DNA of 64,000 nt. Source: Candidatus Doudnabacteria bacterium (GTDB lineage: Bacteria; Patescibacteriota; Doudnabacteria; UBA920). The notes under the pieces are model-generated. The model ran no database searches and had not been told where the DNA came from. It was given only the letters and a program-made list of their open reading frames with translations. Shown here piece after piece: positions 1,100 through 56,012 of this stretch; the first letter of the stretch is position 1; the number at the start of each line of letters is the position of its first letter. The stretch spans positions 8,617-72,616 of the forward strand of contig JADZEH010000024.1 of assembly GCA_020850635.1 (NCBI GenBank), written 5' to 3'. The position numbers and the translations under genes are program-made.

Positions 1100-2688
1100 G
1101 TCTGTCGTTTCCTTAGAACTTGGCCGCTTAGAGTCTTGAGTGTAATCCCAGACTTTACAGTGAGTTGGCCATTAATCAGAACATGTTCAATTCCTCGAGG
1201 AAAGCGATAGGGGCTTGTTAGGGTTGCTGTATCGACAATAGTAGAAGGGTTAAAAATAACGATATCGGCTTTTTTCCCAACAGCGAGTTCACCACGATCA
1301 GTAATACCCACGACTTGTGCAGCCGTACTTGTGAGTTTGCGAATCGCCTCGCTTAAAGAAATGGCATTAGTGTCTCGGACGTCAGCTAAAAATTTAGGGG
1401 CTGTGCCAAAACAACGAGGATGAACTAAGCGGTCGTTAACTACACCACTGGTGACGCCCTGTGGGTTGGGAAAGCCTGCTCCATCGGTAGCGACCAAAGA
1501 AAACGGATGCATTACCAAACTCTCAACAGTTTTAGAATCGAGGGTTTGATCAAAAACCATAATTTCTGTGCCACCGTGTTCAATGAGCAAGAGTAGAGCT
1601 TCTTCACTCGTTATTTCAAAATCCTTAGCAATGTGGGATAGTCTCTTGCCGATTACGTTAAGTTTGTTAGCCGTAGATACCACCAATAGTTCGGGTAAGG
1701 TCGAGTTAGTGTTATGCAAGTGTTCAATAACTTTTTTTCGTTTGGTTGGGTCTTTGAGTTCGCTTAAGATGTGATTTCTACCACCAATTCTAATCCATGA
1801 CGGTAAGTATCGAGTAATATTTTGCCAAACCGTATCGTATGGGTAAACATCAAACCAGACATCAACACCTTGATGGCGTGCGGTTTCAAGCCGGTCGATA
1901 ACATGTTCCAATACGTGCTTATCTTGTCCCCCACTTAATTTTAAGTGAGAGATTTTTAGTTTGACTCCAGTGTCCTTCGCGAGCTCCAAAACTTCATCAA
2001 GGCTTTCGATAATATTTTCATCTTCGTTGCGTAAATGCACCGAAAATAAACCTTTGGTTTTAGCGACGGCTTCAACAAAATCTTTTAGTTCAATCGGAGT
2101 GACTGATAGTTCATGTCCGTAACCTAGCCCATTAGATAAACCAAAGGCTCCTTGAGCTAAACTTTGTTCTAGAAAAGCGAGTAAGGTTTTAGATTCTTGA
2201 GTTTGAAGAGCGTTAGCGTTTCCTCCTACAAGCCCGCGACGAAGCGTGCTGTATCCGACAAGGCTAGCAACGTTACACCCAAGTTCACTCATCTGTAGTG
2301 TCTCTATAAATTCTGAAAAACTGCTCCAGTTAACGTTTGCCCCTTCTAGGGAATGCCATTTTTGCATAGCACTTAACGATTCTCTGGAAAGCAGTGGAGC
2401 TAGGCTTGCTCCACAGTGTCCAACCACAATAGTTGTAAAACCTTGAGCACGTAAACTATCTAAAGAGGGGTTATCAAAAAGTTGCCAGTAGCTGTCGCTA
2501 TGGTTTTGGACATCGATAAAACCTGGGCAGACCACAAGTCCTTGGGCATCGATGACTGTTTGTCCAGCTGTGTCGATGGAGTCGGCAATCCGAACGATTT
2601 GTTCGCCTTCAATCGCGATGTCACCGTGACGCGGTTGACTGCCGGTACCATCAATGATGCTGGCATTTTTAATAACAACTGAATACAT
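1096..2688 (-). CDS. Amidohydrolase of the D-aminoacylase / N-acyl-D-amino-acid deacylase family
   Basis: 530 aa. N-terminal IIDGTG...DIAIEGEQI...VCPGFIDVQNHSD metal-binding signature typical of the D-aminoacylase family. Confidence 0.7.
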   Translation of the reverse strand: MYSVVIKNASIIDGTGSQPRHGDIAIEGEQIVRIADSIDTAGQTVIDAQGLVVCPGFIDVQNHSDSYWQLFDNPSLDSLRAQGFTTIVVGHCGASLAPLLSRESLSAMQKWHSLEGANVNWSSFSEFIETLQMSELGCNVASLVGYSTLRRGLVGGNANALQTQESKTLLAFLEQSLAQGAFGLSNGLGYGHELSVTPIELKDFVEAVAKTKGLFSVHLRNEDENIIESLDEVLELAKDTGVKLKISHLKLSGGQDKHVLEHVIDRLETARHQGVDVWFDVYPYDTVWQNITRYLPSWIRIGGRNHILSELKDPTKRKKVIEHLHNTNSTLPELLVVSTANKLNVIGKRLSHIAKDFEITSEEALLLLIEHGGTEIMVFDQTLDSKTVESLVMHPFSLVATDGAGFPNPQGVTSGVVNDRLVHPRCFGTAPKFLADVRDTNAISLSEAIRKLTSTAAQVVGITDRGELAVGKKADIVIFNPSTIVDTATLTSPYRFPRGIEHVLINGQLTVKSGITLKTLSGQVLRKRQT

Positions 2689-2696
2689 AAATTTCT

Positions 2697-3743
2697 TTAG
2701 AGATATCGATCAAGGAAAAAAATTATAACTCCAATAATACTTGTGACTGCGGAAATAATCCAAAAACGCATGGTTACTTTAGTTTCGGGCCAGCCTAATG
2801 CTTCAAAGTGGTGATGTATCGGAGCTGATATAAATATTTTCCGTTTAAAGACTTTTTTAGAAAAGATTTGAATGATCGCGCTAAAAGCTTCGATTACAAA
2901 AATAAATCCAATCAAAGGCAGGAGTAAAACGGAGTTGGTTAAAAATGCGACAATAGCCAAAAGCACACCCAGACCCATAGAACCCGTATCGCCCATGATA
3001 AATCTCGCTGGGTATACGTTAAACCACAGGAAAGCTAGCAAGCCACCGATCGTGACTCCTAGAAACGCGGCTAAGTTTTCTCTTCCACTCATGTAAGAAA
3101 TCAAAGAGAAAGATAGAAAAGCAATTAACAGTGTGCCTCCAGCTAGCCCATCTAAGCCGTCGGTTTCATTCACAGCAAAACTAGTCCCAACCACGACTAA
3201 AATAAAGAATGGGATAAAGAGCCAGCCAATTTCTAAATTTCCATAAAAAGGAACATGCAAATAACTAAAATCTAATTTGAAATAAAACCACCACGCACCA
3301 ATTATGGCCACCAGTGTATACAAGAAAACTTTAAAGCGGAAAGGAAAACCCCGACCTTTATGGCCTAAGCGATTGATGTCTAGAAAATCGTCAGCGAGAC
3401 CAACGAGTGAGGCTCCAAGAAACGCACCAAGTGGCAGTAAGGTTTCGCGACGTGTCAAAAAGTTGAAACCATGTGCTCCGGGAATTTCAAAAATACGATC
3501 AGCAATCCAAAAAACCACAGCAATAATAACAACGGTACCCCAGACTAAAATTCCCCCCATGGTTGGGGTGCCTTTTTTATCTTTATGTAAGGCTGAGAAT
3601 ACTGGAGTACTCCCATCATCGCGAATATTTTTACCAAGTTTGTATTTATATAAAAAGTGGGTAAGCAGTGGAGTGGCTAGTAACGCAAAAACGAATCCAA
3701 TCGAGGTCAGAGTGAAAATTTTGGTCAAAATCAGTGAAGTCAT
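2697..3743 (-). CDS. mraY: Phospho-N-acetylmuramoyl-pentapeptide transferase MraY
   Basis: 348 aa polytopic membrane protein with NETDGLDGLAGG and PIHHHFE motifs. Confidence 0.95.
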   Translation of the reverse strand: MTSLILTKIFTLTSIGFVFALLATPLLTHFLYKYKLGKNIRDDGSTPVFSALHKDKKGTPTMGGILVWGTVVIIAVVFWIADRIFEIPGAHGFNFLTRRETLLPLGAFLGASLVGLADDFLDINRLGHKGRGFPFRFKVFLYTLVAIIGAWWFYFKLDFSYLHVPFYGNLEIGWLFIPFFILVVVGTSFAVNETDGLDGLAGGTLLIAFLSFSLISYMSGRENLAAFLGVTIGGLLAFLWFNVYPARFIMGDTGSMGLGVLLAIVAFLTNSVLLLPLIGFIFVIEAFSAIIQIFSKKVFKRKIFISAPIHHHFEALGWPETKVTMRFWIISAVTSIIGVIIFFLDRYL

Positions 3744-3768
3744 ATGTTTATATTATACCACAAAAGCC

Positions 3769-4746
3769 CTATTTTAAGGGCTCAGTAGTTTCTAATGAAT
3801 AACTTTCTTGCACTATAGTTTTTAAACGGGTGGTATCGCTGTCACGATAATCACTTCCCAAGACAATAACCGCGATCTCGTGACCTTGATGATCAAATTT
3901 TGTAACCATCGCACCTTGGGCACCTTCGGTGTATCCAGTTTTGATTCCGGTAATTGCTGAATCTTTTTGAATTAACTTATTTGTCGCTCTAACACGATAA
4001 GTGTTTCCAAAGCTTCCTGAAAAGCTATATTGAGATAGTCGACCAAGTTCAGAAAAGTTTTGATGTCTTAGGATTGCTTTGACTAAAATATGAACATCAT
4101 AAGCGGTTGAGAACTGTTTGGAGCTATCAAACCCAATCGGGTTTTCAAAACGAGTGTTTTGCATCCCAAGTGCTCCTGCTTTTTGGTTCATTAAATCAGC
4201 GATCTGAATTCCAGTTTTATCTGCGACAACTCTCCCTAAAAATACTGCGGCGTCATTTGCCGAACCAACGAGCATCGCATTGATAACGTCGTTAACTTTT
4301 ACCGATTCCCCAATTCGCAGTCTTAAAGATGGGGTTATGGTTAGACTATCTTTCGGGGTAACAACAATTTGTTCATCTAGTGCTAAGTATTCATAGGCCA
4401 ATAATGCCGTCATGAGTTTAGTTAGACTGGCGATTGAGGTTTTAGTGTCAGACTCCTTTTCAGTAAGAATTTGTCCTGTTTCAATATCAAACACAAAGAA
4501 ACTTCGGGCGGAAACACTGGTGGTATCAACAATCTTTTTAAGGACAAATTGTTGTGGTTTGAGTTCCGTGAAGCTCGGAAGAGCACTATCGGTAGCAGTC
4601 TCTGCCCCTAAGACTTTTGGTTCAGGCGAGCTTTTGGCGAGTTCTGTTGGCGCTGAGACAGTCGGGGTGAAGACTGCAAATAAAAAAAGCGCCAAAATTC
4701 CTGTGAGCATGCTAAAAACACTGATTTTTGTTTTGATTTCGTCCAT
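3769..4746 (-). CDS. D-alanyl-D-alanine carboxypeptidase (serine peptidase S11, PBP5-like)
   Basis: Signal peptide/TM at N-terminus. SLTK (SxxK), SAN (SxN) and KTG motifs. Confidence 0.85.
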   Translation of the reverse strand: MDEIKTKISVFSMLTGILALFLFAVFTPTVSAPTELAKSSPEPKVLGAETATDSALPSFTELKPQQFVLKKIVDTTSVSARSFFVFDIETGQILTEKESDTKTSIASLTKLMTALLAYEYLALDEQIVVTPKDSLTITPSLRLRIGESVKVNDVINAMLVGSANDAAVFLGRVVADKTGIQIADLMNQKAGALGMQNTRFENPIGFDSSKQFSTAYDVHILVKAILRHQNFSELGRLSQYSFSGSFGNTYRVRATNKLIQKDSAITGIKTGYTEGAQGAMVTKFDHQGHEIAVIVLGSDYRDSDTTRLKTIVQESYSLETTEPLK

Positions 4747-4844
4747 ATTTCTTTACTATAAGTATACACTAGATTCTTCGCATTTGTTGACAACGAAAAC
4801 CCTTTGTGGATAAGATACCTTGTAACCAAATTAACAAAAATATT

Positions 4845-5165
4845 ATGGATGAAGTAAACGTAACCGAAGAAACCTTTGACCAGGAAGTTCTTAAGTCAAA
4901 TGTCCCAGTGCTGGTCGACTTTTGGGCAGAATGGTGTGGGCCATGTAAAATTGTTCACCCTATTTTAGACGAAATTCGTCAAGAATATAGTGGTAAAATC
5001 AAGATCGCTAAAGTAAACGTGGATGAGCAAAATGCTCTCGCTGGACGATATAACGTGATGAGTATTCCGAATATGAAGATTTTCAAAGGTGGTCAACAAG
5101 TTGGTGAAATTGTTGGCGCCGCTCCTAAACAGTCTATCCTTGCCGAACTCTTGAAACACATGTAA
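4845..5165 (+). CDS. trxA: Thioredoxin
   Basis: WAEWCGPCK active site. The ORF opens at 4806 but the conserved start is the MDEVNVTEETF methionine at 4845. Confidence 0.9.
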   Translation: MDEVNVTEETFDQEVLKSNVPVLVDFWAEWCGPCKIVHPILDEIRQEYSGKIKIAKVNVDEQNALAGRYNVMSIPNMKIFKGGQQVGEIVGAAPKQSILAELLKHM

Positions 5166-5167
5166 AT

Positions 5168-5194
5168 AAAAACCCCGCTCACAAGCGGGGTTTT
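5168..5194. terminator. Bidirectional intrinsic terminator between convergent trxA and the ATPase gene
   Basis: A-run, ccccgc/gcgggg stem with 6-nt loop, then T-run. Confidence 0.6.
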
Positions 5195-5198
5195 AAAT

Positions 5199-7115
5199 TT
5201 AGAATTGGTGGACTTCACCGGGTTTTAAGACTTGAGGGCTTTCCTCAGCTGGTTTTGGTGGCTGTGGTACGGGCTGTGTGGCTGGTTCTGCTGGTTTATT
5301 GATTGCAACTTGAGACACAGCACTCTCCACTTTATTTAACAAATCGTCAGTCTTTGATTTATCAATTGTGTGTACGGTATCCCAAATAGGGTTTTCGTGT
5401 TTTTTGGGTTGTGGTTTTGGTTGACTTGGTCGGTCAGTACTTCGTCTTTGTGGTGGTCTATTTCGATCGCCGTGTCTTCGGTTATCATCAGAACGATGTT
5501 CTGAGCGTGGTTGATTATTACTACTACCACGATCTCTGCGTGAATCTCTGCCGCCAGATGAACGAGTGCGGTTCGGGTCTGAAGATTGCTCAACTTTAGG
5601 AATCAAAGGCTTCTCCTTGTATTCATCTTTCGGTTCAGCTGAAGGAACAGCTGAAGCCATGGCCTTGGGTTCGGTAGGACGTGGAGCGTCGGGAACTGTT
5701 TCCGAAGCTGTAAATGGTTTTTGTGGTGCTAAAATTTCTTGAATTTGACTTTTGCGTTCTGTGGTTGGGTTTTCATCAGCTCTTTCTTCGGTGCCAACTA
5801 ATACACCTGCTTGTTCATGGTATTCAGCGCCCATCCAACGACTAATTTTTTCTTCAACTTCTGCAACGTCATTACCATATCGTTCGCGGGAAACTTTAAT
5901 TACCTTCTCGGCATTTCCAGTTTTCCATAAGTCATTAACGGGCATCGTTACAGCAGAAAAAGGATCACTGGCTACACCATTGATCATCAATTTTAAAATA
6001 ATGTTGTACTTCGGTAAGTTCACAATATCGGTTGGAGTAAAGATTGGGTCGAATTCTGTTTCTAGGAATTCGGCATCGGCTGCGCCAACTCGGAATATTA
6101 CCATGGTACCAACGTTACCAAACACAGCATCGCGAACCTTCGTACTGTTGCGATCGGGAACTAACTGACCAATATACTGGTGACCCATTATCAAATTCAG
6201 TCGGTATTTACGAGCTTCGCTCAAAATTGTAGCGAAACTTTCGGTCACAAAGTTTTGAAACTCATCTACATATAAATAGAAATCTTTACGTTCTTCTTCG
6301 GGGATATCAACGCGAGACAAAGCCGCCAATTGAAGTTTGGTAATAATCATCGCACCAAGCAAAGCTGAGTTGTCTTCACCAACTTTACCTTTAGACAAAT
6401 CCAAGAGCATGATCTTTTGGTTATCCATCATACTACGTAGGTCTATAGTAGAGCGTGGTTGACCGATAATATTACGAATAATACCGGATGACAAGAACTG
6501 TCCAACTTTGTTTTGAATTGGGGCTACCGCTTCTGTTCGATACTTTTCAGCATAGTTGGCGTATTCATCAACCCAAAAAGCGCGGACCATAGGGTCTTTG
6601 ATGTTGTCGACAATCTTTTTACGATACTTTTTGTCGACGTACATGCGAACAATACCAAGCATGGTGTTACCCGGACTTTCGAGCAAAGCCAAAATGGTGT
6701 TGTTAAGAATGTATTCCATACGAGAGGACCAGGTGTTGGCCCAAATCTTGGTAAACACACCCATCAAACCAGAAGCAACTAAATGTTTGTACTTGGTATC
6801 AACGGCTTCAAGAATGTTAAACGCGATTGGGTGATCTAAATCAGCAGGGTTAAAGTAAATAACGTCGTTAACACGACTACTTGGAACATAATCGAGGATT
6901 TTAGCGACTGAATCACCATGTGGGTCGATAAAACACACACCGTGACCATTTCTGATGTCCTGGATGACCATATTTTCCATCAAAGTCGTCTTACCCATAC
7001 CGGTTTTACCGATAATGTACATGTGACGACGACGATCATCAGCTTTTATACCAAAAGGCACTTCTCGATTGCGGAAGTTGGTTTTAGCGAAAAAGTTAAT
7101 GTCAGTATTGGCCAT
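5199..7115 (-). CDS. VirD4/TraG/TraD-family coupling-protein-like P-loop ATPase with a long low-complexity basic C-terminal tail
   Basis: Walker A GKTGMGKT, CFIDPHGD, Walker B YLYVDEFQNF, and a SEARKYRLNLIMGHQYIGQL motif like the TraG-D_C domain. No N-terminal TM helices. The last ~170 aa are rich in R/S/D/P/Q. Confidence 0.6.
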   Translation of the reverse strand: MANTDINFFAKTNFRNREVPFGIKADDRRRHMYIIGKTGMGKTTLMENMVIQDIRNGHGVCFIDPHGDSVAKILDYVPSSRVNDVIYFNPADLDHPIAFNILEAVDTKYKHLVASGLMGVFTKIWANTWSSRMEYILNNTILALLESPGNTMLGIVRMYVDKKYRKKIVDNIKDPMVRAFWVDEYANYAEKYRTEAVAPIQNKVGQFLSSGIIRNIIGQPRSTIDLRSMMDNQKIMLLDLSKGKVGEDNSALLGAMIITKLQLAALSRVDIPEEERKDFYLYVDEFQNFVTESFATILSEARKYRLNLIMGHQYIGQLVPDRNSTKVRDAVFGNVGTMVIFRVGAADAEFLETEFDPIFTPTDIVNLPKYNIILKLMINGVASDPFSAVTMPVNDLWKTGNAEKVIKVSRERYGNDVAEVEEKISRWMGAEYHEQAGVLVGTEERADENPTTERKSQIQEILAPQKPFTASETVPDAPRPTEPKAMASAVPSAEPKDEYKEKPLIPKVEQSSDPNRTRSSGGRDSRRDRGSSNNQPRSEHRSDDNRRHGDRNRPPQRRSTDRPSQPKPQPKKHENPIWDTVHTIDKSKTDDLLNKVESAVSQVAINKPAEPATQPVPQPPKPAEESPQVLKPGEVHQF

Positions 7116-13372: not shown

Positions 13373-14156
13373 GGAGTTTGTTCATCGTTGTTAAAAAAGC
13401 GTTTGCCCAGTTTTCGTAACCAATGTCTGACGGGTGAAATTGATCTTGAGCAAAAGTGATTTTTATATCTGGATATAGATGCCAGCCAAAATCATGGATT
13501 GGAACAACATGAACTCGATCGTTTTCTAGCTTGAGAAGTTCACGATTGACTACTTGGGCTTTGGCCTCAAGGACTTGTCTAAAAATCCATGGCAATAAAG
13601 GTGCGTCTTTTAAAATAGGAGTATTTGTTAGATAGATCTGAGCGTGAGTTTCAGCAAGTAATCTCTCAATAATAATTGAGTAATTTTCGACGATACTTGC
13701 GTTGCTTTTTAAATGGGTAATATCATTAGCCCCGATGGAGAGTGTGATGATGTCAGGATTCACCTCAATTATTTTGGGTAGTTGTTCTTCAATCACATTG
13801 TTTGTACGTGCTCCGCTTTTACCCACATGAACATATTTAACTTTATTTTGTTCAGACAGTCTTTGGAAAACTTTGTACGTATAAGTATGAGCAATGTCAC
13901 TGGCGCCTACACCAACAGAAGTACTATCACCAGCGGCAACATAAGTTAAGAGTTCGCCCGATCCCTGTTCACTATTTTGTTGAACGATTTCTGGCAATCG
14001 ATTACTTTTGAGTACATACAAGAATCGCCCATAAGAGACGGCGGCGTAAACAACAACAACGGCGAGAATTATGTACATTATTTTGAAGTTACGTTTTGAC
14101 AATTTGTTTGAGTTGTAAAAAGTCTTTGATAATTTCGGCTTTGACTTTTGGAGCAT
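13365..14156 (-). CDS. SGNH/GDSL hydrolase family protein
   Basis: GDS(T)S block VAAGDSTSVG, GAND block, DQFHPSD (DxxH). N-terminal TM. The likely start is the internal Met at 14078. Confidence 0.8.
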   Translation of the reverse strand: MLQKSKPKLSKTFYNSNKLSKRNFKIMYIILAVVVVYAAVSYGRFLYVLKSNRLPEIVQQNSEQGSGELLTYVAAGDSTSVGVGASDIAHTYTYKVFQRLSEQNKVKYVHVGKSGARTNNVIEEQLPKIIEVNPDIITLSIGANDITHLKSNASIVENYSIIIERLLAETHAQIYLTNTPILKDAPLLPWIFRQVLEAKAQVVNRELLKLENDRVHVVPIHDFGWHLYPDIKITFAQDQFHPSDIGYENWANAFLTTMNKLHD

Positions 14157-30292: not shown

Positions 30293-30295
30293 ATA

Positions 30296-30621
30296 CTTTT
30301 AGCAAACTCGTAAGCCGAATTCTGTTTCTAAATAATCATCTATCTTGTCCTGCTGTTACCACCAGGATCATGCTGCCTACCAAATTTGGCATTGCACTCA
30401 GGTAAGGATTTGGCCGTTTCACCCTCTACATTACTGCAAAGGTTCACCCCGAAGGGTGCTCTTGGCTTGCGCCGCCAGCGTCACTGTTCGCACCTCTAAA
30501 ATTACTTTCGACGGGAATTACCCGCTACCCTTGTTAATGACTCTATAGTGGCCATCAACTAAGTGTTCGGACTTTCCTCTCTTAGCCTTGCGGTAAGAGC
30601 GATTATTCGATTTGCTAAAAG
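30296..30621 (-). ncRNA. rnpB: RNase P RNA (bacterial type; M1-like ribozyme)
   Basis: The minus strand carries GAGGAAAGUCCGAACAC (P4 5-prime strand), GGGUGAAACGG, ACAGAAUUCGGCUUAC (P4 3-prime strand). Terminal P1 pairing is CUUUUAGCAAAU / GUUUGCUAAAAG. No ORF. About 326 nt. Confidence 0.8.
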
Positions 30622-40162: not shown

Positions 40163-40717
40163 TTATTTGAACTCGGCATAACTAAACAAAACAGAGAATG
40201 CTTTACACCAAATAAGGACTTTGTTGTACTTGCTGATATCGGTTCCTTCGGGAACTGTGTAATTTACATTTCCTTGTGTCGCTTTTAAATCACCCAAACT
40301 TACATAGTCGGCATCACCTAATTCGGATGATAAGTAAACATCGACATCTGGTCCATTGATAGTTTCAAAATTCTCGAATCGGACTACATGCTTACCATTC
40401 TGTTCAATGAGTATGGCCTTTCCAGAAACAGCGTGCGCCCGAGGTTTAAACTCAGCTGAGGCGACTATCTTAGCTTGATTTGATGGTACAGAATCAGACA
40501 TAACCATGACTTTATCTTTCATAGCCAAGGTCTCTTGTTCAAATCGCTCTTTGGTTTCAGGACTCATATTATCCAGATCATCCTTAACTACTTGAGAACC
40601 TACGGTGAGTGGTGATTCTTCATTCAACTCTTTGTTATTCCAAAACGGGGATATCAAATAATATGCAATCCCTAAAACCACTATTATCCCAACACTTAGT
40701 AAAACTTTTTTATTCAT
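40163..40717 (-). CDS. Secreted/membrane-anchored DM13-like domain protein
   Basis: N-terminal TM/signal. HAVSGKAILIEQNGKHVVRFENFETINGPDVDVYL resembles the DM13 domain consensus. Confidence 0.5.
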   Translation of the reverse strand: MNKKVLLSVGIIVVLGIAYYLISPFWNNKELNEESPLTVGSQVVKDDLDNMSPETKERFEQETLAMKDKVMVMSDSVPSNQAKIVASAEFKPRAHAVSGKAILIEQNGKHVVRFENFETINGPDVDVYLSSELGDADYVSLGDLKATQGNVNYTVPEGTDISKYNKVLIWCKAFSVLFSYAEFK

Positions 40718-40786: not shown

Positions 40787-40860
40787 TGGCAGGGGCTGTA
40801 GGAATCGAACCTACGCAAATGGTTTTGGAGACCATTGTACTACCATTATACGAAGCCCCC
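40787..40860 (-). tRNA. tRNA-Trp (anticodon CCA)
   Basis: Reverse complement GGGGGCUUCGUAUAAUGGUAGUAC...CUCCAAA...GGUUCGAUUCC...CCA. Cloverleaf folds with anticodon CCA. CCA is encoded. Confidence 0.9.
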
Positions 40861-40930: not shown

Positions 40931-41086
40931 CTACTTGGTTTCTTTGTGAACAGACATTTTCTTGCAGTGCTTACAAAACTTCTTGATTTCCAAGCGAGCT
41001 GGGGTGTTTTTCTTGTTCTTGCTCGTCATGTAATTCAAGTTTTTGCAAACCGTACATTCCAAATCGATTCGGTTATCTTGAGACAT
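40931..41086 (-). CDS. rpmG: 50S ribosomal protein L33
   Basis: 51-aa product [51 protein letters not shown] with two CxxC pairs. Below the ORF-track size cutoff. Confidence 0.85.
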
Positions 41087-41159
41087 AAAAAATGTTTTAA
41101 GTTGTTACAATTGTTTCAGCTATTGCAGCCAGGATCCGTTGGATACTTTTCTGAAACTA

Positions 41160-41235
41160 TGGAGCCGGCTGTCGGACTCGAACCGACCACCTACGGTTTA
41201 CAAAACCGTTGCTCTACCAGATGAGCTAAGCCGGC
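41160..41235 (-). tRNA. tRNA-Thr (anticodon UGU)
   Basis: Reverse complement GCCGGCUUAGCUCAUCUGGUAGAGCAACGGUUUUGUAAACCGU...GGUUCGAGUCC...GCCGGCUCCA. Confidence 0.9.
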
Positions 41236-41320
41236 ATCTAAAACTGACTTTTATTGCGTAGATAAAAGCCAAAATATTGTACCATAAACCCTGGAAAAAA
41301 TCCAGTCTTAATATAGTCGA

Positions 41321-41349
41321 TTGACATCAGCAGAAATTTATAGCATAAT
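41321..41349 (+). promoter_or_regulatory. Consensus-like sigma70 promoter TTGACA-17-CATAAT for the high-GC ORF
   Basis: -35 at 41321-41326, -10 at 41344-41349. AAGGAGGAG Shine-Dalgarno at 41386-41394. Confidence 0.5.
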
Positions 41350-41398
41350 ACTCAATCGACAGACACCAAATTCTGACGAGCTTCTAAGGAGGAGACCG

Positions 41399-41932
41399 AT
41401 GACTTTTGACCGCAGAGATAACGAACCATATCTCAAGCTCAACGACCAACTATACCAACGAACGTTAAGCGGAAGTATGGCAACAAACCATGCCCTGTTT
41501 CACTCCATCGTCATAGAGGCGATGAAGATGTTCGCAGACGTGCCCGGATGGGAGGAAAGAACTGGAGCGTACTGGGCAATTGCGGGCATCTACACCGAAG
41601 AGTCTTACGCTGCGGGCTACGCGGGTAACAACGGTTACTCAGCAGGTGAACAATTTCGATTGCGATGCAAAGAAAAGCTGGCACGTTTGGCGTCGCACCG
41701 ACATCACTTGAGCAGTGCCGAAAGCCGGAACCCTGATCGGCTCCAATTCGGAGGAGCGATCCGTACCAACTGGTACATGCTCTCGATGTCGGGACTACCC
41801 GAAGACGGCGACGAAATCTGCGTGCTCAAATTCGCTGTGGAGCGCTCCTGGCTCACCGACGACCAGGCAAAGCAGATCGCCGAGATCAGCGACAACTGGC
41901 TTTGGAAAGAGTTCTCTGAATTGCTCTTCTAG
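41399..41932 (+). CDS. Hypothetical protein, compositionally foreign (~53% GC), inserted within a tRNA cluster
   Basis: ATG at 41399 after a strong SD. The ORF-track start at 41321 is a TTG that coincides with the -35 box. 177 aa, MTFDRRDNEPYLKLNDQLYQRTLSGS... No recognised domain. Confidence 0.55.
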   Translation: MTFDRRDNEPYLKLNDQLYQRTLSGSMATNHALFHSIVIEAMKMFADVPGWEERTGAYWAIAGIYTEESYAAGYAGNNGYSAGEQFRLRCKEKLARLASHRHHLSSAESRNPDRLQFGGAIRTNWYMLSMSGLPEDGDEICVLKFAVERSWLTDDQAKQIAEISDNWLWKEFSELLF

Positions 41933-41962
41933 CAGACTGCGCCACAACGGCGCGACGTTCCA

Positions 41963-42001
41963 CCCTGCCCCTCCATCTCGGAGCGGCAGGGGATTTTTTT
42001 A
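41963..42001 (+). terminator. Intrinsic terminator (ccctgcc...ggcaggg, T7) for the high-GC ORF
   Basis: GC-rich stem with a nested ctcc/ggag inner stem, followed by seven Ts. Confidence 0.7.
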
Positions 42002-42012
42002 TCCAATAACAA

Positions 42013-42038
42013 AAGACACCTCATTTGAGGTGTCTTTT
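42013..42038. terminator. Bidirectional hairpin terminator (aagacacctc/gaggtgtctt) that also ends the tRNA-Thr/tRNA-Tyr transcript on the minus strand
   Basis: 10-bp stem, 4-nt loop, with A-run and T-run flanks. Directly abuts the tRNA-Tyr 3-prime end. Confidence 0.6.
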
Positions 42039-42039
42039 G

Positions 42040-42125
42040 TGGTGGGCCGAGAAGGATTCGAACCTTCGAAGGCAAAAGCCAGCAGATTTACAGTCTGCCC
42101 CCGTTGACCGCTTGGGTATCGACCC
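42040..42125 (-). tRNA. tRNA-Tyr (anticodon GUA), class II with long variable arm
   Basis: Reverse complement GGGUCGAUACCCAAGCGGUCAACGGGGGCAGACUGUAAAUCUGC...GGUUCGAAUCC...CCCACCA. 86 nt. Confidence 0.9.
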
Positions 42126-42201
42126 TGGAGCCGTTTTGCGGGATCGAACCGCAGACCTTCTCCTTACCATGGAGATGCTCTACCAACTGAGCTAAAACGG
42201 C
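42126..42201 (-). tRNA. tRNA-Thr (anticodon GGU)
   Basis: Reverse complement GCCGUUUUAGCUCAGUUGGUAGAGCAUCUCCAUGGUAAGGAGA...GGUUCGAUCCC...AAACGGCUCCA. Immediately adjacent to tRNA-Tyr. Confidence 0.9.
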
Positions 42202-46341: not shown

Positions 46342-47150
46342 CCATACAGGAGACCTTAAGTCTTTATTCAGATGCTGAATCTGATTTATTACTCTCTTTC
46401 GTACTAAAAAAGTCGAGAGATTTTTTGTATATCCATCCAGAAAAAAAGCTTACAACAAAACAACTAAAAGCTTTTAAGTCTCTAGTTGCACGACGCAAAA
46501 AAGGTGAGCCTGTAGCTTACCTATTGAGATATAAAGATTTCTTTGGATTGAAATTCAAAGTTACCAAAGATACGTTAGTTCCTCGTCCTGAAACCGAATG
46601 GGTTGTGGATCATATCCTCAATCAAAAACTTTCAAACAACACTTCAATTCTCGATTTAGGAACCGGCTCTGGATGTATCGCGATCAGCATAAAAAAGAAC
46701 ACTCCTAAACTTTCTGTAACTGCAAGCGATGTTTCGAAAAAAGCTTTACTTGTAGCAAAACAAAACGCCCGATCCCACAAAACTAAAATTAACTTTGTTC
46801 ACTCAAACTTACTTAGTAACTTATCAAACAAACATTTTGATATTATTATCGCTAACCTTCCTTACGGCTGGAATGTTTGGAAAAATAATAGCTCTATCGA
46901 AGCAAAAAGTTTAAAGTTTGAACCACAATTAGCACTATTTACCAAAGAAAACGGCTTATACCTCTATCGCCTTTTACTGCAACAAGTTTCAAAACTCAAA
47001 AAACAACCTAGCGTAATCTATTTAGAATTCGATCCACGACAAAAAACTAAACTCGCTAAACTTATAAAAACAATACTACCTAAAGCCAAAACTATTTTTC
47101 ATAAAGATTTAGCTGGGTTGTGGCGATACGTAGAAATAAAACGAGGCTAG
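46338..47150 (+). CDS. prmC: Release factor glutamine methyltransferase PrmC (HemK)
   Basis: SAM-binding LDLGTGSGCIAISI and IANLPYGW (NPPY-type) motif. Confidence 0.85.
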   Translation: MTIQETLSLYSDAESDLLLSFVLKKSRDFLYIHPEKKLTTKQLKAFKSLVARRKKGEPVAYLLRYKDFFGLKFKVTKDTLVPRPETEWVVDHILNQKLSNNTSILDLGTGSGCIAISIKKNTPKLSVTASDVSKKALLVAKQNARSHKTKINFVHSNLLSNLSNKHFDIIIANLPYGWNVWKNNSSIEAKSLKFEPQLALFTKENGLYLYRLLLQQVSKLKKQPSVIYLEFDPRQKTKLAKLIKTILPKAKTIFHKDLAGLWRYVEIKRG

Positions 47151-47602
47151 CCAAAATGCGCTAACCTCATGCTCTGACCCGGGTAACACTCGTCAAGTCC
47201 CCGAAGCATGAGCCCAGTCCTTGGATGAGCGGGGTCCATTGAGATTCTATGACGGACCACAGCCGCCTTTTTCTCGTCCTGTCCAAGATAGTGATACATC
47301 ACGTTCGATACCTGAATGATCATCTTAACTATTTCTCGCTTCCCTTCTTGGGGAAAGCGCGAGATAACAGCCTTAATGCTTCGCTCGCTCGGTATCATCT
47401 TCAACGCAAAAGCTGCATAGGTAATCGGCGCGGTCCTCCCTTCGCTCCCGATCACATAGTACGCTTTGTTCCGCCCTCGCAAGGTTATCTGATATTCGAA
47501 CCTCACGGACACGCCAGACCTGACAAACTCCGAAAAACCATGCAGGTCTCCAGACTCCTTCTGACACAGCTGAGAAAACACCGAGACCACCCTTCTTGCC
47601 AT
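47147..47602 (-). CDS. Hypothetical protein, compositionally foreign (~52% GC)
   Basis: ATG at 47600-47602 (minus) preceded by GGTAGGAGGT SD. The ORF track extends to 47635. 151 aa, MARRVVSVFSQLCQKESGDL... Putative promoter on minus at 47630-47658 (TTGACA, then TATGCT-like -10). Its stop overlaps the convergent prmC stop within GCTAGC. Confidence 0.5.
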   Translation of the reverse strand: MARRVVSVFSQLCQKESGDLHGFSEFVRSGVSVRFEYQITLRGRNKAYYVIGSEGRTAPITYAAFALKMIPSERSIKAVISRFPQEGKREIVKMIIQVSNVMYHYLGQDEKKAAVVRHRISMDPAHPRTGLMLRGLDECYPGQSMRLAHFG

Positions 47603-47670
47603 CACACACCTCCTACCCATTGATGACATTAGCATACTCGAACATCAAAGTTTGTCAAAATCTACACAAC

Positions 47671-54466: not shown

Positions 54467-54487
54467 AGCTTGTGGTATACTGAAGGC

Positions 54488-54742
54488 AATTTGCACTAAA
54501 GAGAATTGGCTTTCCCCTGGTCCAGCTAGTTACCCTCGCCTTTAGGAACATGTTTGAGACAATCGGCCCCACATACTGGAGAGTAGTTACTCCAGACATT
54601 CCCCACCTAAGAGCCAATTCTCACAATCGGTCAGTAGTGAATACCAGTCCAACAAGGAGGACTATCAAGCGCCTAGGCGCTTACCCCAAGTAGCACACCC
54701 AGTCACAGCGTTCCCGCGCAATGGTGTTGCTTGGGTTTTTTT
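54488..54742 (+). ncRNA. Candidate structured small RNA (~255 nt) with extended -10 promoter and intrinsic terminator; family unknown
   Basis: TGgTATACT extended -10 at 54473-54481. No ORF of 60 aa or more on this strand. Long-range stem GAGAAUUGGCU (54502-54512) pairs with AGCCAAUUCUC (54610-54620). Internal hairpins (cuggag/cuccag; GCGCCUAGGCGC). Terminal stem cccaag/cttggg followed by T7. Confidence 0.35.
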
Positions 54743-54744
54743 AT

Positions 54745-54773
54745 TTGACAAAAAGGGGTAATAGTCCTAGAAT
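54745..54773 (+). promoter_or_regulatory. Consensus-like sigma70 promoter TTGACA-17-TAGAAT
   Basis: -35 at 54745-54750, -10 at 54768-54773. GGAGAAAG Shine-Dalgarno before the ATG at 54855. Confidence 0.45.
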
Positions 54774-54854
54774 GAGCAAAGTTTCAACTAGAAGCACGGC
54801 TCATACAGCGTGTTTATCACCCAACGCCCAGCCGAAGCGAATTGGAGAAAGCTC

Positions 54855-55346
54855 ATGAAGAGTCTCCTTTCGATGCTGTCCGTTGCAATCGTCTTCGCTT
54901 TCGTGTCACCTCTGGTGGCCGACCTCGAGGCGAAAGCGAGTTCGACCAACAAATCGCCGCCGAGCATTACCATCACGGGTCAGCGCATCCATTACGGATC
55001 TGACGATGTGAACACGATGCCGATGGCCGACCAAACGCCGCTCGAGACGATCACCACGTCCGCCAGCATGGACAAGGTTTTCGCTCCACCGGCGATCAAC
55101 AGTTCGAAGATGACCGGGTCCACCGACGGGAAATCGGTGAACGATCCGGCCGCCACGCTCGCGGGAACCGACCCGTACATTGTTCTGTACATCAACGTCG
55201 CCATTCAACGGACGATGATACCGGCAATGGCAGGATGCAACGAGGCGATTTTGCGCGCACCCCGCAAGTCGGCACGTTCGGGTCCCGAGATCCAACGAGC
55301 CTGGCGCCCGTTCGCCGGCCTCGATCTCAACTCCTCGAAGCCCTGA
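54855..55346 (+). CDS. Small secreted hypothetical protein, high GC (~58%)
   Basis: ATG at 54855 (the ORF track opens at 54810). Signal peptide MKSLLSMLSVAIVFAFVSPLVADLEAKA. 163 aa. The antisense ORFs here are high-GC artefacts. Confidence 0.5.
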   Translation: MKSLLSMLSVAIVFAFVSPLVADLEAKASSTNKSPPSITITGQRIHYGSDDVNTMPMADQTPLETITTSASMDKVFAPPAINSSKMTGSTDGKSVNDPAATLAGTDPYIVLYINVAIQRTMIPAMAGCNEAILRAPRKSARSGPEIQRAWRPFAGLDLNSSKP

Positions 55347-55393
55347 AACTTGTTCGCAAAAGCGAACACTCACGACCTCCTCACGGAGGGACC

Positions 55394-55433
55394 CCGCTCT
55401 CGACATCTACGGATGTCGGAGCGGTCTTTTTTT
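55394..55433 (+). terminator. Intrinsic terminator (ccgctc-t-cgacatc / gatgtcggagcgg, T7)
   Basis: About 13-bp stem with one bulge and a tetraloop, followed by seven Ts. Confidence 0.65.
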
Positions 55434-55442
55434 ATTTAAAGA

Positions 55443-55471
55443 TTGACATTTAGCATTATTTTCTGTAGATT
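55443..55471 (+). promoter_or_regulatory. Sigma70-like promoter TTGACA-17-TAGATT
   Basis: -35 at 55443-55448 (the ORF-track TTG start is this box), -10 at 55466-55471. AAGGAGGA Shine-Dalgarno at 55482-55489. Confidence 0.45.
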
Positions 55472-55496
55472 GATATATCGCAAGGAGGAACGCGAC

Positions 55497-56012
55497 ATGA
55501 ACTCACTCCGCCATGTTTTGCTTTATGCAATTGTCATCCTGTTCATCTCGGTTATTGCCGCTATCCTGTACTGGCTATTCGGCATTCAACCGATCAACAC
55601 AGTCTACGGAACTATTGTAGTTTTCGTAGTTTGTTTTCTCTGGCTCTCTTGGGAAAATTTTGTGATTTCACCAAGAAGAATTCAAATAATCCTGCAAATC
55701 TTAGCCATGGATGGCGGAGAAATGACAACCTTAGAAATCATCGAGCAGGGCAAGGGCGAACTAAGCAGGGCTGCTATCCACTCCGAGTTAAATTACCTGA
55801 TTGAGAAAGATCTTGTGAGTAAACGTATCGAGGAACGAACCACACCATATATTCCGCTCAGCTACTTCAAGATCACACCCAACGGAAGACGAGAACAACA
55901 CGCCAAGATTACTTCGAAGTTGAGACTTAGCTGGCAACGTACGTGGAGCCAGTCCGGACAGACAATGTCCGGTCTTTTTTTATCCTCAAGATTTTTGACA
56001 CAAACAGTTTGA
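55497..56012 (+). CDS. Membrane-anchored winged-helix (PadR/MarR-like) protein
   Basis: ATG at 55497. Two N-terminal TM helices, then ILQILAMDGGEMTTLEIIE...SELNYLIEKDLVSKRIEE...YFKITPNGRRE resembling PadR-type wHTH. An intrinsic terminator lies inside the last ~20 codons. Confidence 0.5.
   Translation: MNSLRHVLLYAIVILFISVIAAILYWLFGIQPINTVYGTIVVFVVCFLWLSWENFVISPRRIQIILQILAMDGGEMTTLEIIEQGKGELSRAAIHSELNYLIEKDLVSKRIEERTTPYIPLSYFKITPNGRREQHAKITSKLRLSWQRTWSQSGQTMSGLFLSSRFLTQTV
55954..55981 (+). terminator. Intrinsic terminator (ccggaca/tgtccgg, T7) embedded in the 3-prime end of the wHTH ORF
   Basis: 7-bp stem, 5-nt loop, TTTTTTT. Confidence 0.6.

Follow-up and report, generated by a model that had tools for sequence, protein, structure and literature searches.

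We analyzed a 64,000-nucleotide stretch of a Candidatus Doudnabacteria chromosome (contig JADZEH010000024.1, positions 8,617 to 72,616; hereafter the window), with a focus on a small, GC-rich protein-coding gene that occupies a slot within a cluster of tRNA genes. The slot is bordered on the left by tRNA-Thr(UGU) (41160-41235) and on the right by tRNA-Tyr(GUA) (42040-42125) together with tRNA-Thr(GGU) (42126-42201), all on the minus strand. The remainder of this conserved cluster consists of rpmG, the gene for ribosomal protein L33 (40931-41086, minus strand), and tRNA-Trp (40787-40860, minus strand), and the order is kept in three related genomes (L001, L003 and L025). Each tRNA gene was identified by both ARAGORN and Rfam; rpmG and the GC-rich gene were taken from the list of open reading frames (ORFs). 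The gene itself (41399-41932, plus strand) encodes 177 amino acids followed by a stop codon. Its GC content is 0.532, compared to a window mean of 0.412, and its GC at third codon positions (GC3) is 0.633, compared to 0.32-0.43 in the neighbouring genes. The product is identical to NCBI entry IT410_02815, encoded on an 86-kb contig of a Candidatus Doudnabacteria metagenome-assembled genome (MAG). A first-pass annotation, made from the sequence alone, had described a 177-aa ORF of ~53% GC on the plus strand between minus-strand tRNA genes, and ARAGORN, Rfam and the ORF list place it exactly there.

We identified the signals for independent transcription and translation that the first-pass annotation had reported. 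A sigma-70-type promoter (41321-41349, plus strand) comprises a -35 hexamer TTGACA (41321-41326), a 17-nt spacer and a -10 hexamer CATAAT (41344-41349), with 11 of 12 positions matching the consensus. Promoter-like sites are not more frequent in the region than expected by chance (4 observed vs 3.4 expected); both hexamers are invariant across the window, L001 and L003. The strong Shine-Dalgarno site, read from the sequence as TAAGGAGGAG (41385-41394, plus strand), lies 4 nt upstream of the ATG at 41399, and its counterpart in L001 is TGAGGAGGAG.

Two tandem terminators had also been proposed for the gene, and both hairpins are present, although only one of them can be assigned to the gene. 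Terminator 1 (41963-41999, plus strand) consists of a GC-rich hairpin (41963-41991) and a U-run, lies within the divergent part of the unit, and is the gene's own; a 70-nt stretch that includes it folds with -32.4 kcal/mol (z -5.2). Terminator 2 (42009-42040, possible on both strands) is a hairpin formed by a perfect 15-bp palindrome; it bears an A-tract as well as a T-tract and abuts the 3' end of tRNA-Tyr. Judged from the sequence, it belongs to the conserved host flank rather than to the gene because homology to L003 resumes at 41990. Its predicted folding energy is -25.5 kcal/mol on the plus strand (z -6.9) and -23.4 kcal/mol on the minus strand, where it is equally stable. With tracts of both kinds, this hairpin can act in either direction, and it probably also ends the minus-strand tRNA unit. 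We identified a local turn in the skew near 45 kb. However, the cumulative skew falls steadily over the whole window and has no minimum there, so a head-on position of the gene near a replication origin was rejected.

The synteny comparison proposed in the first-pass annotation revealed that the same slot is occupied in L001 and in L003/L004, and that it holds other genes in L025. L001 is a near-identical strain, in which 604 of 609 flanking positions (99.2%) are identical to the window, compared to 85% identity of the coding sequence at both the nucleotide and amino acid level. For this pair of alleles, non-synonymous divergence (dN) is 0.087 and synonymous divergence (dS) is 0.55, giving a dN/dS ratio of 0.16; the divergence spans the whole coding sequence, including synonymous sites. 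Thus, 41399-41932 is a real protein-coding gene under purifying selection. The closest non-identical homologue beyond the L001 strain (P0004) is encoded in L003/L004 at the same place, from tRNA-Thr(UGU) to tRNA-Tyr/Thr(GGU), in a slot that also adjoins the TPR, tsf and rpsB genes, as it does in the window. The flanking proteins of L003 are very similar to those of the window (TPR 94.8%, EF-Ts 98.0% and S2 94.3% identical, with flanking DNA ~87% identical), whereas the slot proteins share only 36% amino acid identity, with 46% identity over their aligned codons.

The edges of this divergence are sharp. The flank that includes tRNA-Thr(UGU) (40931-41305) is 91.7% identical to L003 and the promoter region (41320-41359) is 85% identical; homology resumes at 41990, and the terminator 2 hairpin is conserved in L001 and L003. 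The 3' untranslated regions (3'UTRs) of the window, L001 and L003, terminator 1 included, are homologous but diverged (61-68% identity, z 4.7-8.6 vs shuffled sequences). The 3'UTR and the coding sequence give discordant relationships: the L001 3'UTR is 68% identical to that of L003 and 64% identical to that of the window, whereas the L001 coding sequence is 85% identical to that of the window and ~37% identical to that of L003. The sharp edges and this discordance may reflect recombination at the borders, and both come from three alleles only. All three alleles have GC contents of 0.53-0.55 in genomes of 0.41 GC. According to the first-pass annotation, finding the gene between the same tRNAs in related lineages, with host-like composition, would refute an insertion. 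The gene is indeed present between these tRNAs in relatives; in composition, however, it does not match the host genomes (GC 0.54-0.55 against a background of 0.41).

The slot content varies among relatives. There is one gene in the window and in L001, and two in L003/L004 (L003 has an additional gene encoding 263 aa). In L025, which is more distant (EF-Ts 76% identical), the slot contains four unrelated genes of host-like GC and no member of the protein family described below. In L108, cargo lies at the neighbouring junction, between tRNA-Thr(GGU) and an inverted tRNA-Tyr. Genes are thus polymorphic in presence and absence at this site, as seen in L025, L003 and L108. Beyond tRNA-Trp, a lone DM13-domain gene (40163-40717) is found in the window, and L003 has ~4 kb in its place (1853-5848), with genes for HIT, a 637-aa product, an acetyltransferase and a PALP-domain protein; therefore, both edges of the tRNA cluster are variable. 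Four independent metagenome assemblies of relatives (L105, L106, L107 and L109) break off within tRNA-Thr(GGU), shortly downstream of the TPR gene. A shared assembly break of this kind is the pattern expected if strains diverge sharply beyond that tRNA.

We did not identify an integrase, transposase, other recombinase or reverse transcriptase within ~10 kb of the gene in Pfam scans. These scans covered 19 ORFs of the window (~30.7-56.0 kb) and the additional 263-aa ORF of L003 (20 proteins), and detected only housekeeping or unannotated proteins. Apart from similarities among the tRNA genes themselves, the slots of the window and of L003 neither contain nor adjoin a partial tRNA copy. No tRNA-end duplication or direct repeat of note was detected, and no part of 41321-42000 has a second copy within the window. 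The first-pass annotation had noted that no integrase, direct repeat or att-like duplication of a tRNA end is visible and had suggested a search for duplicated tRNA 3' segments; both the Pfam and the repeat scans bear this out. Site-specific integration was rejected for lack of a recombinase and of att-like or tRNA-end repeats, and a diversity-generating retroelement for lack of a reverse transcriptase and a template copy. A viral origin is unsupported, given that no relatives were found among IMG/VR viral contigs and no fold match in BFVD.

The locus has features in common with several known systems. As in tRNA-targeting integrative islands, additive islands and tycheposons, it is adjacent to tRNA genes, the cargo varies among relatives and the cargo is hypothetical. 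Unlike tRNA-targeting integrative islands, it has no integrase or recombinase and no tRNA 3'-end repeats, and the promoter is conserved with the flank. As in integron cassettes, an exchangeable ORF lies behind a resident promoter and has an imperfect inverted repeat at its end. However, no IntI is encoded nearby, there is a single cassette, and the inverted repeat has a U-run (i.e., it is an intrinsic terminator) and, unlike attC, is homologous across alleles. No tyrosine recombinase was detected in the Pfam scans of the neighbourhood; no attC covariance model was run.

The gene product belongs to a large family of proteins. A phmmer search of 1.84 billion representatives (50%-identity clusters) recovered 581 clusters at E<=1e-3 and 42 at E<=1e-10, nearly all of 150-180 aa. 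The family was defined by alignments made in this analysis (A1 and A7), and the window protein scores 168.6 bits against the family hidden Markov model, with full-length similarity and shared motifs. The family motifs are GGYFC, EKAxRLAxHPxHxSSWQSRNP, GGAIR and LSFSGLPExxDEA. The window protein has the residues of these core motifs that hardly vary among 138 family members; its conserved core (aa 56-139; 41564-41815, plus strand) carries GAYWA in place of GGYFC, followed by EKLARLASHRHHLSSAESRNP, GGAIR and LSMSGLPEDGDE. The segment ASHRHHLSS, considered a His-rich stretch in the first-pass annotation, is actually the window version of the family motif A-x-H-P-x-H-x-S-S-W-Q-S-R-N-P and is not of low complexity. 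The absence of a recognisable domain, in contrast, was reported correctly: the window protein has no Pfam match even at E<=10, and neither Pfam nor NCBIfam, PADLOC or PHROGs has a match for it or for any of the 138 family members. A search of PDB sequences with the family profile also returned no match.

Searching species-representative genomes with one conserved peptide pattern recovered 16 loci. Eleven are named as Patescibacteria (Minisyncoccia, Giovannoni-, Lipton-, Buchanan- and Kerfeldbacteria, Saccharibacteria and Paceibacterota), another three have no title beyond "bacterium", and the remaining two come from MAGs of Acidobacteriaceae. Thus, this is an unannotated family of proteins of ~160 aa, mostly of Candidate Phyla Radiation (CPR)/Patescibacteria and native to CPR genomes. 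The gene appears to act alone because no neighbour or operon partner is conserved across lineages in the 20 loci compared. The GC content of family genes usually tracks that of the host, from 0.33 to 0.65, with mismatches at L002, L009, L012 and L016. Members in low-GC hosts have 33-39% GC, and an intrinsic need of the family for high GC was rejected. The L002 member (1478-1984) is 34% identical, has a GC of 0.60 and GC3 of 0.76 on a contig of 0.42 GC, and adjoins KTSC and epimerase-like genes rather than the tRNA slot; therefore, the family GC mismatch recurs outside the slot. Two tandem paralogues are encoded in L009 (1-531 and 703-1260 of MAG contig JAKALK010000031.1), which shows that local duplication is possible in this family.

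In 5 of 17 independent loci, the family member has a tRNA gene within 1 kb, compared to ~1 expected (p ~0.002, based on a rough CPR background). The tRNAs differ among lineages (Thr, Tyr, Trp, Gln, Glu, Ser and Val), and most loci lack one. Small GIY-YIG nuclease genes were identified directly beside tRNA-Gln in L007 (8949-9436) and tRNA-Trp in L013 (6878-7278). In both cases a partial copy of the adjoining tRNA occurs on the far side of the nuclease gene, which resembles an att-type duplication, and a family member lies within ~1 kb in both loci and also in L008. These loci may represent a tRNA-targeting mobile element of CPR genomes.

Structure prediction, another step suggested in the first-pass annotation, yielded AlphaFold models with pLDDT values of 88 for the window protein (>= 94 over most of the conserved core, aa 56-139) and 95 for a more typical family member. 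Both have the same topology (helix, hairpin, helix, loop, hairpin, helices). With either model, the first ranks in Foldseek searches of the PDB are DUF336 structures: EfgA (6bws), ORFY (2a2l), PduOC (5cx7) and Ybr137w (4clc). These matches are weak (probability 0.87-1.00, E 0.016-0.12, TM scores 0.39-0.52). Neither the window protein nor any of the 138 members reaches the gathering score of PF03928, for which the control GlcG scores 123 bits. In hhalign, comparison of family alignment A1 with a five-sequence DUF336 alignment (A4, made from PDB chains found with that GlcG sequence) gave E values of 0.06-0.21 and a probability below 1%, although this template is shallow and has low power; only the Lys helix was aligned in the register of the EfgA pocket.

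EfgA has a conserved ligand pocket formed by K57, S114 and D121 (PMC8153426). In the protein family described here, K93 in helix 2 (41675-41677), S131 at the end of strand 4 (41789-41791) and D138 at the start of helix 3 (41810-41812; all plus strand) occupy nearly invariant columns, and their positions in the predicted topology are equivalent to those of the EfgA pocket. They are proposed ligand-pocket residues; the correspondence to K57, S114 and D121 is suggested by motif order and predicted secondary structure, without a significant alignment. The pocket motifs are retained in the alleles of the window, L001 and L003, and the remainder of the sequence diverges.

The proteins are similar to DUF336/GlcG/HbpS-like proteins (PF03928; e.g., EfgA 6bws, the PduO C-terminal domain 5cx7, K. 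pneumoniae ORFY 2a2l and yeast Ybr137w 4clc) in size (~140-170 aa), in the predicted order of helix, beta-hairpin, helix, loop, beta-hairpin and helix, and in the order of motifs: helix 2 has K-A, G-G precedes strand 3, strand 4 ends with S-G, and helix 3 starts with D/E. They differ in having additional N- and C-terminal helices and their own conserved loop motif, H-P-x-H-x-S-S-W-Q-S-R-N-P, in occurring mainly in CPR as stand-alone genes outside metabolic clusters, and in the lack of a Pfam match, of a significant profile-profile comparison and of high TM scores. The family is thus a probable remote, pocket-preserving relative of DUF336 rather than a demonstrated member. Given the DUF336-like fold and the conserved polar pocket, the ~20 kDa product is most likely a cytoplasmic, stand-alone small-ligand binder or sensor.

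The best explanation for the locus is that the gene is a resident, monocistronic accessory gene in a variable slot of the Candidatus Doudnabacteria chromosome. We lean, by a modest degree, toward a one-gene, replacement-type flexible genomic islet, in which divergent alleles would be exchanged via homologous recombination over the conserved tRNA flanks. The slot within the tRNA-Thr(GGU)-tRNA-Tyr / tRNA-Thr(UGU)-rpmG-tRNA-Trp cluster hosts a gene with its own conserved consensus promoter, and this gene would be insulated from the opposing tRNA genes by its own terminator and the conserved bidirectional terminator. The coding sequence and 3'UTR would be swapped for very divergent alleles of the same family, exchanged by strains and species through homologous recombination, with the tRNA, promoter and terminator flanks as homology arms. 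The unit predates the split between the window and L003 and has a resident promoter, and is therefore not a fresh insertion. We infer replacement by recombination from three features: huge silent-site divergence of the coding sequence next to intergenic DNA with almost none, abrupt boundaries, and a mosaic 3'UTR.

Replacement flexible genomic islands that arise by homologous recombination, and can be flanked by tRNA genes, occur in other streamlined bacteria (PMC10872708). As in those islands, low-similarity versions of the same functional family are found at the same chromosomal position between conserved flanks (here tRNA genes), with sharp boundaries, a mosaic 3'UTR and assemblies that fragment at the border. 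Unlike them, the islet is a single 0.6-kb gene with a cytoplasmic product and no glycocalyx or surface role, its GC is above that of the host, and recombination is deduced from three alleles only. The high GC may reflect either import from a higher-GC gene pool or a GC bias associated with recombination. Recombination is reported to be positively associated with GC3 in bacteria (PMC4450053), and this association would link the high GC and the hyperdivergence.

Several points weigh against a replacement islet. Only three slot alleles are known, too few for a formal recombination test, and their shared GC of 0.53-0.55 is unexplained by simple exchange among low-GC relatives. In a neighbour-joining tree of the family, the three alleles form one clade at 40% bootstrap, so the tree speaks neither for nor against import of distant alleles and does not separate import from divergence in place. 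Classical replacement islands comprise several genes with surface-structure functions, not a single cytoplasmic protein. Finally, the link to DUF336 is weak, considering the Foldseek E values, the non-significant hhalign result and the lack of Pfam matches (0 of 138 members).

In-place hyper-evolution is a serious rival to the replacement islet, if on balance an unlikely one. The gene would have been at the locus since the common ancestor, and its coding sequence and 3'UTR would have diverged extremely fast without allele import, through locally elevated GC-biased mutation or gene conversion, or an arms race. This fits with the slot alleles (window/L001 and L003) being each other's best or joint-best matches in the 1.84 billion representatives, and with homology of the promoter and the 3'UTR/terminator in all three genomes. 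Two more GC-rich genes of the window (54846-55346 and 47147-47635 on the minus strand) behave alike, and import from a high-GC donor does not readily account for an ORFan that is apparently confined to one lineage and maintains a high GC3. On the other hand, a dS of 0.55 (at a dN/dS of 0.16) beside adjacent intergenic divergence of <1% would need a ~50-fold or greater rise in mutation rate with boundaries a few bases wide, the discordance between 3'UTR and coding sequence points to breakpoints, and the reverse transcriptase and template-repeat copy of a diversity-generating retroelement are lacking. More doubtful still is the idea that the lineage has a locus-restricted process that drives extreme divergence and raised GC in small, separately transcribed accessory genes, for which GC-biased gene conversion at recombination hotspots or targeted GC-biased hypermutation are candidate mechanisms. 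The 64-kb window may contain at least three such hyperdivergent, GC-rich genes (41399-41932, 47147-47635 and 54846-55346). If true, reduced CPR genomes would have a mechanism of diversification that has not been described in them before.

The first-pass annotation favoured cargo inserted within a tRNA cluster. Foreign composition, a variable slot and enrichment near tRNAs stand, but recent or site-specific insertion does not. For a recently acquired mobile cassette one can cite GC and GC3 far above those of the host, slot content that varies among relatives, the enrichment of the family by tRNAs of various identities (5 of 17 loci, as above) and the GC mismatch of the L002 and L016 members. 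This explanation is largely refuted by the occurrence of the unit at this very site in genomes with 13% nucleotide divergence in the flanks, and by the lack of a recombinase within ~10 kb and of tRNA 3'-end duplications or flanking direct repeats; the promoter is of host-like composition and conserved with the flank, and no relatives were found in viral contigs. We consider it very improbable. A functional explanation for the position, which we rate as only slightly less improbable, is that the product could be an EfgA-like sensor that modulates translation; its function, rather than an integration hotspot, would then account for its location near tRNA genes, rpmG, tsf and rpsB. EfgA, the top structural match, is a cytoplasmic DUF336 sensor that arrests growth and translation (PMC8153426); the Giovannonibacteria member (L013) also lies between tRNA-Thr(GGU)/rpmG and tRNA-Trp, and the family is enriched beside tRNA genes. 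However, the adjoining tRNAs vary among lineages and most loci have none, neighbours are not conserved across lineages, the L025 slot has no family member, and hypervariability is unexpected in a housekeeping regulator. A link to translation is also compatible with a replacement islet and not strictly exclusive of it. That the ORF is spurious (e.g., due to chance in GC-rich DNA, to a structured RNA or to chimeric assembly) has a negligible probability. Long ORFs overlap in several frames of this GC-rich DNA and no annotated domain was found, but the idea is refuted by purifying selection on the sequence, motifs conserved in hundreds of homologues, confident structure models, the lack of an Rfam match for the slot gene and identical junctions assembled independently from several samples. 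An RNA element at the slot is likewise unlikely, as the Rfam matches are tRNAs and RNase P only.

Other segments of the window were also compared to relatives. We identified a second GC-rich single-gene islet (54746-55432, plus strand; GC up to 0.61, GC3 0.75), with a promoter (TTGACA-N18-TAGAAT), an ORF with a signal-peptide-like N-terminus (54846-55346) and a terminator (-41.9 kcal/mol, z -7.2). A word-indexed search of a 5.8-billion-protein set recovered only three homologues of this ORF (100%, 90% and 45% identity) and, within the reach of such a search, none outside the lineage. The protein is 45% identical to its counterpart in L112, where the flanks are 95.6% identical, and GC3 is 0.75-0.79 in all three alleles. 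A third GC-elevated gene (47147-47635, minus strand; 162 aa, GC 0.51, GC3 0.60) occupies a conserved place between prmC and rplY (L25) and has no Pfam match. It can barely be aligned with its L003 counterpart (13570-14007), the flanks of which are 80-89% identical, and L003 has an additional 208-aa gene at the prmC-rplY position.

Beside the second islet, a ~525-nt segment (55445-55969) with a 171-aa ORF (55497-56012, plus strand; membrane-like N-terminus, no Pfam match) is missing from L110, which is otherwise 94-97% identical, and thus constitutes a small presence/absence polymorphism. After dnaE there is a non-coding stretch of ~260 nt (54470-54730, plus strand) that ends in a hairpin and U-run terminator; L112 has only ~37 nt there. 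This stretch has no Rfam match and its folding energy is unremarkable (z -1.8); a small RNA gene and the remnant of an insertion are both candidates. RNase P RNA of bacterial class A was identified at 30295-30618 (minus strand; 108.6 bits vs a gathering score of 100).

We consider the novelty of these results to be moderate: an unannotated, CPR-centred family with a probable DUF336-like fold, a probable single-gene replacement islet, and a link between GC and hyperdivergence. The association of elevated GC3 with hyperdivergence is repeatable in this lineage. The locus also shows that a GC-rich gene next to a tRNA need not mean recent integration. If the reading as an islet is correct, a conserved tRNA cluster in a reduced CPR genome would be a hotspot for single-gene replacement by very divergent alleles without mobile-element machinery. 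The family itself is new, with at least 581 clusters at 50% identity, mainly in CPR/Patescibacteria, and neither Pfam nor NCBIfam has a model for it. Plausibly, it forms a remote branch of the fold of DUF336 small-molecule sensors, and it is thus a starting point for biochemistry in organisms where most genes lack a function.

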